A stretch of DNA of 64,000 bases from Escherichia coli (GTDB lineage: Bacteria; Pseudomonadota; Gammaproteobacteria; Enterobacterales; Enterobacteriaceae), in NCBI RefSeq assembly GCF_001677475.2, contig NZ_CP015229.1. The stretch is one strand, 5' to 3'. The stretch's first letter is position 1; each line of letters begins with the position of its first letter. Below the pieces are notes generated by a model. The model saw only the letters and a program-made list of their open reading frames with translations, was not told the origin of the DNA and made no database searches. The position numbers were made by a program, and so were the translations under genes. Of this stretch, positions 16,729 to 20,347 are shown in pieces.

Positions 16729-16866
16729 TTACTTTTCAGCGGGGCGTTTTCTGCCGGTTGGGTTATTTACCACGCTGGATTTGTCACCTTCGGTAACTAT
16801 TTTGCGCTGGTTAGAAATTTTATGGTCCAGTCCAAGAATATGACGTGCCTGACGGTTCGATTTCAT
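16729..16866 (-). CDS. sra: stationary-phase-induced ribosome-associated protein (45 aa)
   Basis: Below the ORF-track length cutoff; found by manual translation: [45 protein letters not shown], with GAGGAG RBS upstream. Confidence 0.88.
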
Positions 16867-16967: not shown

Positions 16968-17183
16968 TTAAAGCGTAGGGTGCTGGCCACTGACCACATA
17001 ATTGATCGTTTGCTGGTAGATATCACTGAGGATGTCGTTATCAGAAGCTTCCACCCATTTGGTCAGCTCCATGAGAATGTCATCTTCAGTGACAACACCG
17101 TGCTCTGCCCGAAGGCCTTGCTCAATGGCATTAACCAGAGCGGGTTCTGCTGTTGAATTTTCTGCCTGATAATAAGTAAACAT
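16968..17183 (-). CDS. bdm: biofilm-dependent modulation protein (71 aa)
   Basis: ORF 16968..17246 trimmed to ATG 17183 (MFTYYQAENSTAEPALVNAIEQG...). Confidence 0.88.
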   Translation of the reverse strand: MFTYYQAENSTAEPALVNAIEQGLRAEHGVVTEDDILMELTKWVEASDNDILSDIYQQTINYVVSGQHPTL

Positions 17184-17277
17184 AGTGATTCTCCGTGTCT
17201 GTGTATTTATGGTGTCTGCTACGGATCGCAGATTTATAAAGCACATTCAGCATGGCAAATATTTGCCGCTTCGTTGT

Positions 17278-17291
17278 TAAGATTAGTCCTG
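17278..17291. promoter_or_regulatory. RcsB-box-like motif (TAAGATTAGTCCTG) in the bdm/osmC divergent region
   Basis: 11 of 14 positions match the RcsB box consensus TAAGAATAATCCTA as I recall it; osmC and bdm are known Rcs targets. Confidence 0.35.
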
Positions 17292-17527
17292 GTTGATGAG
17301 TTTTATATTTTAACACTATGATATTGATAGGGATTGTTATTGGTGTGAATCGATTAATATTGATACAATATCTTTTGAGTCATATATTTCCTGTTATCTA
17401 TTGTGGGAATTTAATTTAAGTACAGAGATAATGTTTTCGCCGGATTTCATTCGGAATATCCTGCTTATCCTCGTGCTGTTTCTCACGTAGTCTATAATTT
17501 CCTTTTTAAGCCCACAGGAGAGCAACA

Positions 17528-17956
17528 ATGACAATCCATAAGAAAGGTCAGGCACACTGGGAAGGCGATATCAAACGCGGGAAGGGAACAGTATCCACCG
17601 AGAGCGGCGTGCTGAACCAACAGCCGTATGGATTTAACACGCGTTTTGAAGGCGAAAAAGGAACCAACCCTGAAGAACTGATTGGCGCAGCGCATGCCGC
17701 ATGTTTCTCAATGGCGCTTTCATTAATGCTGGGGGAAGCGGGATTCACGCCAACATCGATTGATACCACCGCCGATGTGTCGCTGGATAAAGTGGATGCC
17801 GGTTTTGCGATTACGAAAATCGCACTGAAGAGTGAAGTTGCGGTGCCGGGTATTGATGCCTCTACCTTTGACGGCATCATCCAGAAAGCAAAAGCAGGAT
17901 GTCCGGTTTCACAGGTACTGAAAGCGGAAATTACGCTGGTATTAGACGTCAACTAG
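17528..17956 (+). CDS. osmC: osmotically inducible peroxiredoxin OsmC, with its last residues replaced by IS-derived codons
   Basis: MTIHKKGQAHWEGDIKRGKGTV... through ...VLKAEITL, then VLDVN-stop read from the IS end. The expected native C-terminus DYQLKS-stop is found intact at 20355..20375, on the far side of the IS. Confidence 0.85.
   Translation: MTIHKKGQAHWEGDIKRGKGTVSTESGVLNQQPYGFNTRFEGEKGTNPEELIGAAHAACFSMALSLMLGEAGFTPTSIDTTADVSLDKVDAGFAITKIALKSEVAVPGIDASTFDGIIQKAKAGCPVSQVLKAEITLVLDVN
17932..17938. repeat. target-site duplication (TACGCTG), left copy
   Basis: The same 7-mer is found at 20348..20354 directly flanking the other IS end. Confidence 0.55.
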
Positions 17957-18004
17957 TTTTGCCGACTCGCGCCAACTATACTGGCCGCACCCTTCAGGGC
18001 GACA

Positions 18005-18760
18005 TCAAGTCGCGCTTGTTACTGCCTTCGCTGTCTTTTTCCTGTAGCTTTCCCCTTTCAGTTCGAACATATATCCGTGATGGATCAGCCTGTCTGCCGC
18101 AGCCACCGCCATAGTCTCATCCACGAAGATGCTGCCCCACATGCTGAACGGATGGTTACTGGTTATCACCAGGCTCCCACGTTCATAGCGATGCGCTATT
18201 AACTCGAACAGCACACCCGTTTCGGCACTATCGCGTTTGACATAGCCAAGATCATCCACCACTATCACCCGGTAGCGATCCAGTTTCAGTAGCAGCTCAT
18301 TCAGTTTCAACTGAGCTCTGGCTTTACGTAGTTCCTGCAACAGCTCTCCTGCGCTGTAGAACCGGGCCCGGTAGCCCTGACCTACTACGCCATCCACGAT
18401 CGCTGCCGCCAGATGGCTTTTCCCCAACCCGCTGGCTCCGAACAGCAGAACGTTTTCTCCTGCATCAACCCAGTCTGTCGTTTCACAGAGTTGCCGGAAC
18501 TGAGCTCCATTCAGTTCCGGCACCTGACTGAAGTCGTATTCGCTCAGCGTTTTGGCAACTGGCAACCGGGCCTCCTTTTTATAACGACGCAGTTTTTCAC
18601 TCTCGCGCCACAGGAGTTCTTCATTGCATAGCGTCAGAAGATAGCGCGATGGTGTCCAGCCTTCTGCCAGCGCTCGTTTTTCCAGAGCGTGCCATTCAGC
18701 TCCAACTCGTGTCAGGCGTAGTTTACGCAGGCTATGTTCAAGGTGATGGATATTGCTCAC
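18005..18760 (-). CDS. istB: IS21-family helper ATPase IstB
   Basis: 251 aa with Walker A GASGLGKSHLA and Walker B VIVVDDLG; start overlaps the istA stop (ATGA), typical for IS21. Confidence 0.88.
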   Translation of the reverse strand: MSNIHHLEHSLRKLRLTRVGAEWHALEKRALAEGWTPSRYLLTLCNEELLWRESEKLRRYKKEARLPVAKTLSEYDFSQVPELNGAQFRQLCETTDWVDAGENVLLFGASGLGKSHLAAAIVDGVVGQGYRARFYSAGELLQELRKARAQLKLNELLLKLDRYRVIVVDDLGYVKRDSAETGVLFELIAHRYERGSLVITSNHPFSMWGSIFVDETMAVAAADRLIHHGYMFELKGESYRKKTAKAVTSAT

Positions 18761-20256
18761 TGCGAACCTCCCTTGCCACGCAGTAGTTGCTCATAACTGC
18801 TCAGGTTATGCTGTATCACATTGACTACCGGCAACGCCTTTTCTTTTATACCCAGGAAGCGCATCAGCCGGTGCAGATCCACGTTTCCCGGGGTATTCAG
18901 CATCTGCTCCATACCTTTTGCCACGACTGAGATATCGTCGTATCCTGCAGCCAGTTTCAGGGCATGTACCATCAGCCTTCCTGCCATATCGGGCTCCAGA
19001 TGATTACATAAGCGACGCCACAGCCTCCGCCATTCATCGTCCGGCAGGATGTCATTTCTCAGCGTTGCATGGCAGAACGCACCGGGCTTTTTTGCCAGAC
19101 TGTCGATCACATGTCGGAAGTCGATACGACGGGCCCGCGTCTTCCCTTTTTCTGGTCTGACGCGAGGGCAGCTCATGACCTCGCTGCTGCCAACGTAACA
19201 GCTCAGACGATCGTCCCATAACCTGACCCGTAACAGTTGACCTACAAGCCGGGAAGGTACGCTGTAGACGACGTGCTTCACATTGATGGTACTGCTGCGA
19301 CTAACCCTCACAGTCAGCTCATCATAGTCAGCACTGCGACGAAGCGGCAGCGGTTTCAGATGAAGACGTTCTTCCTTGACCAGATCCTGATTGTTACGGT
19401 TGTGCCGCATAACCTGCTGAGTGATGAAGGCCTGATATTCTTCTATGGTGCTGAAGTCGTTACTGCCCCGCAGTATCAGCGCCTGACAGATACGCCTTTT
19501 CAGATGTCCGTGGGCACTTTCAACCGAGCCATTTTCGTGGCCCCGACCGGCATTATTGTGTACGCCCTGCATTCCGTAGTGCTGACAGAGAGTAGCATAA
19601 CGCTCAGTCAGCTCGCGGCGTCCATCTTCGCCCTGTTGTTTCCATGCTGCCCTCAGGCTGTCCGTTTTATGTTCTACCGGCACTCCGCCCAGTTGTCCGA
19701 GGGCTTCCTGCAGGCCTTCAGCCAGAGCAGAGAAGCTCTCACCACCCAGAACAACCCGCATCCAGCTCCAGTGGCTCCATTCCAGACGGAAGTGATACAA
19801 CTTATGCGCCAACAACTTACCGGCGATGGTGACAACTACACCTTTCAGTTCAGTAAAGTCCGACAGGCCTCGCAGGCCGGGCTGATGTTGCTGGCGGAAC
19901 ATGACCTCCTGCTCTGTACCATACTGTAGTTTCCATTCGCGAACCCGCCGTTGCATTGTTCTTCGAAGGCTGTTGGGGTACTGGCCGGGATATTTATCCT
20001 GTAGCATCTCCAGTAGAGTTGTTGGTGTCAGAGCCGGCCTCTCTTTCAACAGAGGAACAAGCATGCTGTCCCACACAGCTTCCAGAGGATCTTTGCGTGT
20101 GCGCCAGTGCCGAACACTGTTTTTTGCCCACTCTCCTTTTTCGATCCGACGACCAGAACGGACTGAGATACCAGCCTTCATGGCCGAGATATGCTGAGTT
20201 ATACCTTTCTTACGCTGAGTCATATAGTAACTGACCTGAGAAGTATTGAGCGTCAC
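18757..20256 (-). CDS. istA: IS21-family transposase IstA
   Basis: 499-aa ORF with N-terminal HTH and a DDE-type integrase core (HTDSLRAAW...GHENGSVESAHGHLKR); an alternative start is the internal Met at MTQRKKG. Confidence 0.85.
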   Translation of the reverse strand: MTLNTSQVSYYMTQRKKGITQHISAMKAGISVRSGRRIEKGEWAKNSVRHWRTRKDPLEAVWDSMLVPLLKERPALTPTTLLEMLQDKYPGQYPNSLRRTMQRRVREWKLQYGTEQEVMFRQQHQPGLRGLSDFTELKGVVVTIAGKLLAHKLYHFRLEWSHWSWMRVVLGGESFSALAEGLQEALGQLGGVPVEHKTDSLRAAWKQQGEDGRRELTERYATLCQHYGMQGVHNNAGRGHENGSVESAHGHLKRRICQALILRGSNDFSTIEEYQAFITQQVMRHNRNNQDLVKEERLHLKPLPLRRSADYDELTVRVSRSSTINVKHVVYSVPSRLVGQLLRVRLWDDRLSCYVGSSEVMSCPRVRPEKGKTRARRIDFRHVIDSLAKKPGAFCHATLRNDILPDDEWRRLWRRLCNHLEPDMAGRLMVHALKLAAGYDDISVVAKGMEQMLNTPGNVDLHRLMRFLGIKEKALPVVNVIQHNLSSYEQLLRGKGGSQ

Positions 20257-20347
20257 GCCATTTCCTGTTGGATCATGTAAATGACACTCAGGTTACAAAA
20301 CCGGCCAGAATAATCGGCGCCAGGCGGACTGAGTTATTGTCGTCTCA

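Follow-up and report, generated by a model that had tools for sequence, protein, structure and literature searches.

The intergenic region between bdm and osmC of Escherichia coli contains a perfect 14-bp palindrome and, 10 bp from it, a motif that resembles an RcsB box. An earlier note on this DNA had suggested that the two elements lie in a divergent promoter region and may together form a composite operator. The locus thus raises the question of whether each element is a regulatory site, and of which gene is served. We addressed it in the window (the whole stretch of 64,000 nucleotides that was analysed) and in a set of related bdm loci.

Locus, elements and chance expectation

The locus consists of maeA-sra-bdm on the minus strand and osmC on the plus strand, at about 17,000-17,600, according to the ORFs and to the annotation of matching E. 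coli genomes and of K-12. The annotation confirms the identities that had been given to bdm and osmC. The genes and elements on the bdm side are as follows.

16729-16866, minus strand: sra (rpsV), from the ORF list and the K-12 annotation
16968-17183, minus strand: bdm coding sequence, 71 aa, from the ORF list and genome annotation
17254-17267, no strand assigned: 14-bp perfect palindrome GGCAAATATTTGCC, an exact reverse complement with 7-bp arms and no further extension
17278-17291, minus strand: RcsB box of the bdm(-sra) promoter, CAGGACTAATCTTA on the bdm strand and TAAGATTAGTCCTG on the plus strand

Both the exact palindrome and the RcsB-like motif, with the 10 bp between them, were found in the sequence as the earlier note had described them, and its distances of about 70 bp to bdm and about 260 bp to osmC were also right. 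The palindrome begins 71 bp upstream of the bdm ATG (17183, minus strand) and is 261 bp from that of osmC (17528). Between the ATG of bdm and the far end of the RcsB-like motif (the bdm-proximal 150 bp), no difference from K-12 MG1655 was found. The middle of the intergenic region (17300-17445) shows many differences from K-12, both promoter-proximal ends being identical, and cannot be aligned between genera.

Neither the palindrome nor the RcsB-like motif exceeds chance as a string. The window contains eight perfect 14-bp palindromes, against 4.78 ± 2.25 expected from 200 dinucleotide-preserving shuffles. Matches to TNRGANNNNTCYNA with at most one mismatch numbered 42, against 65.6 ± 8.2 in the shuffles, and a match to the RcsB-box consensus is not statistically significant by itself. 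Since both elements occur at chance frequency, functional claims must rest on conservation and on published regulation.

For the comparison, species-representative genomes were scanned for Bdm, which yielded 40 loci from Escherichia, Salmonella, Citrobacter, Enterobacter, Lelliottia, Leclercia, Silvania and others. The alignment covered 230 bp upstream of each bdm gene, and its columns were tabulated for 34 non-Escherichia loci, with one very divergent locus left out. Sequence farther upstream is unalignable between genera, so the aligned blocks are under constraint. No indels were found in the spacing between the RcsB-like box and the conserved block downstream of it in the aligned bdm loci.

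The RcsB box and the gene it serves

The consensus for the RcsB homodimer is the pseudo-palindromic TN(G/A)GAN4TC(T/C)NA (Huesa et al. 2021, PMC7913699). On the bdm strand, CAGGACTAATCTTA matches seven of the eight specified positions, with C instead of T at position 1. The A, the GA, the TCT and the final A of the box were each conserved in all of the 34 non-Escherichia loci (100%), while the central N4 varied. This is the pattern expected of a GA-N4-TC core. In eight loci of the Enterobacter group and its relatives, the box reads TAAGA(T/C)GA(A/G)TCT(G/T)A, a perfect match to the consensus. The box and the downstream conserved block lie about 100 bp upstream of bdm in every locus, whether osmC is adjacent or not.

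Positive regulation of bdm by RcsB on osmotic shock is described in PMC3599342, which cites Francez-Charlot et al. 2005, and bdm is among the most salt-induced genes of E. coli (bioRxiv 10.1101/2025.05.13.653802). In Salmonella, yddX (the bdm orthologue) showed a log2 fold change of 2.96 between the RcsB wild type and the null mutant (PMC7913699). The conserved core, together with the reported activation of bdm by RcsB in E. coli and Salmonella, thus identifies the motif at 17278-17291 as the known RcsB box of bdm, to which RcsB is predicted to bind. It is an already published element of the Rcs envelope-stress regulon. An RcsB box has reportedly been defined at the bdm promoter, and the regulation of bdm is said to be independent of RcsA. 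The earlier reading of the motif as an RcsB box is therefore upheld, as it fits the published homodimer consensus, has a core that is invariant across genera, and precedes a gene that is RcsB-activated in the literature.

The C at position 1 has a practical consequence. The Salmonella study used a strict pattern search that required T at this position, and assigned to yddX a box 269 bp upstream (PMC7913699). With T demanded at position 1, the conserved bdm-proximal box would be skipped. In Salmonella subspecies arizonae and diarizonae, the bdm-proximal box is exactly as in E. coli. Strict RcsB patterns that demand T at position 1 miss the conserved bdm box, for example at Salmonella yddX.

In the non-Escherichia genera (L010-L041), a T-rich run, TTTTTATTT, is found directly upstream of the box (about 10 bp), with two T's that are 100% conserved. 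Its position is that where an UP-like element would lie. Escherichia has CTCATCAAC there.

The gene neighbourhood varied among the loci. Only 18 of the 40 loci have osmC within 1.5 kb upstream of bdm, and the other 22 (L010-L013, L019-L026, L028-L029, L031-L036, L039 and L041) do not; in Leclercia, Silvania and Pseudenterobacter it is about 800 bp away. As osmC is mostly non-adjacent, the divergent bdm/osmC arrangement is limited to Escherichia, Citrobacter, Salmonella and close relatives. By comparison, sra is found downstream of bdm in every locus whose sequence extends far enough, and besides its own promoter it uses the upstream promoter of bdm (PMC10746276). The box accompanies bdm even without osmC next to it. 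We therefore assign it to the promoter of bdm-sra, not to a control region that bdm would share with osmC.

The link that had been drawn between these elements and osmC does not hold up, since the box follows bdm without osmC and osmC has a putative RcsB box of its own.

17451-17464, plus strand: osmC-proximal RcsB-like box TCGGAATATCCTGC, with two mismatches to the consensus, followed by TTATCC, 17 nt and TAGTCT

This box has its layout in the same register as that of rprA (see below), and a consensus TATAAT at 17493-17498 overlaps the arrangement (window 17451-17498). It had gone unmentioned in the earlier note. The osmCp1 promoter is a target of RcsB too (PMC7913699). The osmCp1 box shares the intergenic region with the bdm box and can be set in the same register, with TAGTCT as its hexamer, but it is a separate site 160 bp away, faces the opposite gene and is the weaker match with its two mismatches. 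osmC also has NhaR and sigma-S inputs.

We also considered a divergent RcsB-dependent promoter on the plus strand, TTGATG-N18-TATGAT (17293-17322), which starts one base after the bdm box, runs towards osmC and would set this box at about -44. It was rejected, as the site is unconserved: K-12 has CATGAT, and the sequences of other genera are unrelated. The promoter scan that gave this site returned a count of 2 against 1.5 expected, which is at chance level.

These results have little importance beyond annotation. The main gain is that the box is conserved across the Enterobacteriaceae and, on the evidence of gene neighbourhood, is better assigned to bdm-sra than to osmC.

At the other end of osmC, similarity to K-12 ends after codon 139 (window 17944), and the C-terminus reads ...EITLVLDVN instead of ...EITLDYQLKS. 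Directly downstream are genes for IstB (PF01695, E = 9e-62) and an IstA-like transposase, encoded by ORFs at 18005-18760 and 18757-20256 on the minus strand. The broken 3' end of osmC (window 17945-20260) and the adjoining IstB/IstA genes indicate that an IS21-family element inserted in the last osmC codons.

Conservation of the palindrome and the operator question

The two arms of the palindrome differ in conservation. In the 34 non-Escherichia loci, identity to E. coli in the bdm-proximal arm, from 17260 down to 17254, is 85, 100, 100, 100, 100, 79 and 94%, whereas the outer three positions of the distal arm show 35% (17267), 21% (17266) and 6% (17265). All the substitutions seen in Escherichia fall in the distal arm or in the centre of the palindrome. 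Three variants of the distal arm were recorded.

E. whittamii: GGTAAAT
A divergent E. coli: GGTAATT
Strains S13, CMZE120 and GN04096: AGCAAAT

The only proximal-arm change within Escherichia is a 1-bp insertion in one strain. Among 5,399 complete E. coli genomes, a 62-bp core is exactly identical to that of the window and K-12 in 4,527 (84%). An allele at window position 17267 (C>T on the plus strand, G>A on the bdm strand) is the sole change to this core in a further 567 complete E. coli genomes (about 10.5%); it breaks the outermost pair, so that 12 bp of the palindrome are left. Strains S13, GN04096 and SK1144 are examples of carriers.

At this site, 7 of the 40 loci have an inverted repeat with arms of 6 bp or more, against 1.6% of shuffled 26-mers; the 40 loci, however, are not phylogenetically independent of one another, and symmetry is built into the AT core. 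In only 10 of the 40 loci do the arms reach 5 bp or more. The only widespread part of the palindrome is its centre, AAAT-ATTT.

A dimeric operator needs both arms and a fixed spacing, and neither holds here. The half-sites are not under comparable constraint (6-35% against 79-100% identity in the 34 non-Escherichia loci), and their spacing in orthologues is not fixed, being 0, 4 or 6 bp across the 40 loci. Nor are such palindromes more frequent than chance in the window (8 against 4.8 ± 2.3). We conclude from these patterns that the palindrome is best described as an accidental symmetry inside the bdm promoter, not a second operator. The proposal of an operator, alone or in composite with the RcsB box, thus fails on the conservation of one arm only, on the variable spacing, on a common E. 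coli allele that breaks the palindrome and on a frequency no higher than chance.

It could still be argued that the palindrome is an Escherichia-specific operator for a dimeric regulator, such as a repressor occluding the core promoter, in composite with the RcsB box. The perfect 14-bp symmetry is kept, across the 62-bp core, in the 84% of E. coli genomes mentioned above, and the palindrome overlaps the core promoter, which is a typical position for a repressor. Its inner 12 bp, GCAAATATTTGC, also resemble a LacI/PurR-type operator (GCAAACGTTTGC), except for the central CG. However, within E. coli the flanks reach the same high identity, which therefore does not single out the palindrome, and as a string the palindrome is no rarer than chance. 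The distal arm is unconserved outside Escherichia and is substituted in E. whittamii, in a divergent E. coli and in the 567 E. coli genomes, and the half-sites are 0, 4 or 6 bp apart where an inverted repeat exists at all. We therefore regard such an operator as very unlikely. The same applies to a lineage-specific composite switch, in which a dimeric regulator bound to a spacer palindrome found only in Escherichia would gate RcsB activation of bdm-sra; we consider this highly improbable. On present evidence, the palindrome is not worth pursuing as an operator.

Known motifs were compared with the palindrome and its surroundings by eye. LacI/PurR-type operators share the GCAAA...TTTGC arms, but their central CG step is TA here, conservation is confined to one arm, and bdm is not known to be under a regulator of this type; a PurR/LacI-type operator was rejected on the missing CG. 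A Fis site, with a 15-bp motif of odd length, does not fit a 14-bp palindrome of even length. A CpxR site (GTAAA-N5-GTAAA) has a poor second half. A sigma-E promoter was rejected because E. coli has GCTGA where other genera have TCTGA, and because the AAC of the -35 is unconserved.

A probable core promoter of bdm-sra

The conserved half of the palindrome may be accounted for by the core promoter. As a benchmark for the geometry we used rprA of K-12, a strictly RcsB-dependent promoter (PMC6298664), taking the annotated 5' end of the RNA as the start (box at positions 124-137 and +1 at 173 of L042). The centre of the rprA box is at -42.5, and the layout is box, TCGACG, 17 nt and TACTAT. Both bdm and osmC fit this register of box, 6 nt, 17 nt and hexamer, and the centre of the bdm box would be at about -42.5 if the extended -10 proposed here holds. 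RcsB homodimer sites usually lie immediately upstream of the -35 element (PMC5651002). The putative elements of the bdm promoter in this register (Model A) are as follows.

17272-17277, minus strand: weak -35-like hexamer ACAACG, abutting the box in the same placement as TCGACG in rprA (putative)
17256-17257, minus strand: TG of the proposed extended -10 (-15/-14), inside the bdm-proximal arm of the palindrome
17249-17254, minus strand: proposed -10 hexamer CATGCT, which is CATTCT in most other genera
17242, minus strand: predicted transcription start, G (K-12 NC_000913.3 position 1556339)
Register on the minus strand: box CAGGACTAATCTTA, ACAACG, 17-nt spacer AAGCGGCAAATATTTGC, CATGCT, then GAATGT and G

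In this register the last three bases of the spacer are TGC, and the palindrome takes up part of the 17-bp spacer and reaches as far as the opening base of the -10 hexamer. Outside Escherichia the -35-like hexamer reads nnCACA, with ACA at positions 4-6 100% conserved. The TG is kept in 39 of the 40 loci and is followed at -13 by C, T or A. Within the proposed hexamer, A-11 is kept in 39 and T-7 in 38 of the 40 loci, while -10 and -9 vary. The signature of an extended -10 promoter (TG at -15/-14 with A-11 and T-7 kept) is thus found across the 40 loci. At the predicted -1/+1, a pyrimidine followed by G occurs in 37 of 40 loci, and the G is present in 100% of the 34 non-Escherichia loci.

It is quite probable that 17242-17291 on the minus strand constitutes an RcsB-dependent bdm-sra promoter in which the palindrome is no separate site. 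The specific geometry of Model A, which derives from the alignment and from the comparison with rprA, we consider likely, with somewhat less assurance. In this model, an RcsB~P homodimer would bind the pseudo-palindromic box at 17278-17291, directly upstream of the weak -35 ACAACG, and would recruit RNA polymerase to an extended -10 promoter (TG at 17257/17256, CATGCT at 17254-17249), so that bdm-sra transcription would start near 17242. The proximal arm of the palindrome (ATTTGCC on the bdm strand) would be conserved because three parts of the promoter fall in it: the AT-rich spacer end, the TG and the base that opens the -10 hexamer. The distal arm would be unconstrained spacer, complementary by accident in most Escherichia. 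The bdm promoter is thus probably dependent on an extended -10 element.

E. coli strain E69 (L040) carries a single-base insertion, TTTGCACATG, between the proposed TG and the -10 hexamer. This could be a promoter-down allele or a sequencing error.

The rprA promoter, with class-II-like activation by an RcsB homodimer, is a close parallel. Its box, TGAGACGAATCTGA, is nearly identical to the bdm box of many Enterobacter loci, CAGGACGAATCTGA, and it abuts a weak -35, as the bdm box would in the same register. Unlike bdm, rprA has a better -10 (TACTAT) and no TG, whereas bdm, with its poor hexamer, would need an extended -10; E. coli bdm differs further by the C instead of T at position 1 of its box. 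RcsAB boxes usually lie farther upstream and need RcsA, while the activation of bdm is reportedly independent of RcsA. The RcsAB box of the RcsA-RcsB heterodimer, TaAGaatatTCctA, shares the GA-N4-TC core with the bdm box (PMC7913699).

On the bdm strand, a simple sigma-70 scan returned no promoter, which is what one would expect if the promoter depends on an activator. No usable row for the start site of bdm was present in the supplements of Cappable-seq, SMRT-Cappable-seq, Shigella dRNA-seq, Kim 2012 and Conway 2014, and the only 3' ends in the Term-seq rows were those that follow bdm and sra. As a -10, CATGCT is poor (3/6) and has a C in place of T at -12. The conservation of AATATTTG, upstream of the TG, exceeds the strict need of an extended -10. 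Boxes of RcsB-activated genes in Salmonella lie at -50/-36, -55/-41 and -73/-59 (PMC7913699), and in Yersinia an Rcs box is found 59 bp ahead of a start site. The geometry therefore does not force Model A, and an alternative -10 has to be weighed.

17233-17238, minus strand: alternative -10 TATAAA (Model B), whose -35 would fall in the palindrome (TATTTG/TTTGCC)

In Model B, transcription would start near 17226-17227 (K-12 about 1556323), and RcsB would act from about -58.5. TATAAA has five of six consensus positions and lies 16 bp downstream of CATGCT; its first two positions, T and A, are 100% conserved and its last T is found in 79% of the loci. Distances of -59 to -73 are on record for RcsB/Rcs boxes of activated genes, and the conservation of ATATTTGCC would be explained as that of a -35 region. 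Against this, TATTTG is a poor -35 at 17-bp spacing, and the good TTGCCA stands at an unusable spacing of 14 bp. The centre at -58.5 is 16 bp (1.5 helical turns) from the -42.5 of rprA, no TG precedes TATAAA, and the pattern of an invariant TG, a variable base and invariant A-11 and T-7 is left unexplained. Model B thus appears possible but rather improbable as the geometry, although both promoters may be present. The conserved half of the palindrome is core-promoter sequence under either model, and the palindrome is still incidental.

The conserved block AATATTTGCCAT might instead be the asymmetric site of a second factor that cooperates with RcsB or antagonises it. RcsB does work with auxiliary partners (RcsA, GadE, BglJ and others; PMC5651002), and AATATTTG is conserved at 82-100% across genera, above the usual level of spacer DNA. 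However, 11-12 variable bases separate the block from the RcsB box, whereas published boxes of RcsB-partner heterodimers are contiguous, and the variation within the block matches the information content of an extended -10. Regulation of bdm is also, as noted, reportedly RcsA-independent. Because of the extended -10 pattern in the block, a second factor is less economical than contacts with RNA polymerase, and we regard it as distinctly unlikely. A role of the palindrome as a nucleic-acid hairpin, either a weak plus-strand terminator or a cruciform, is hardly credible. A consensus scan does flag TGGCAAATATTTGCCG followed by CTTCGTTGTT as terminator-like on the plus strand, but folding yields only -6 to -9 kcal/mol (z-scores of -0.97 and -1.42 relative to shuffles), the tail CTTCGTTGTT is T-poor and one arm is unconserved. 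Among the Term-seq rows searched, there was no 3' end at the palindrome. Moreover, the palindrome is upstream of both candidate bdm starts and so not in the bdm mRNA. An intrinsic terminator or hairpin was therefore rejected on energy, tail, conservation and Term-seq. The reading that we prefer remains an RcsB-dependent promoter with the palindrome in its spacer.

In the 5' leader of bdm (17220-17233, minus strand), a further block, TTTTGCGAGCCGTA, which is ATCTGCGATCCGTA in E. coli, is 88-100% conserved across genera. The block lies downstream of both candidate starts in the window and at the equivalent positions of L006-L041. It could belong to a leader RNA element or to an alternative promoter.
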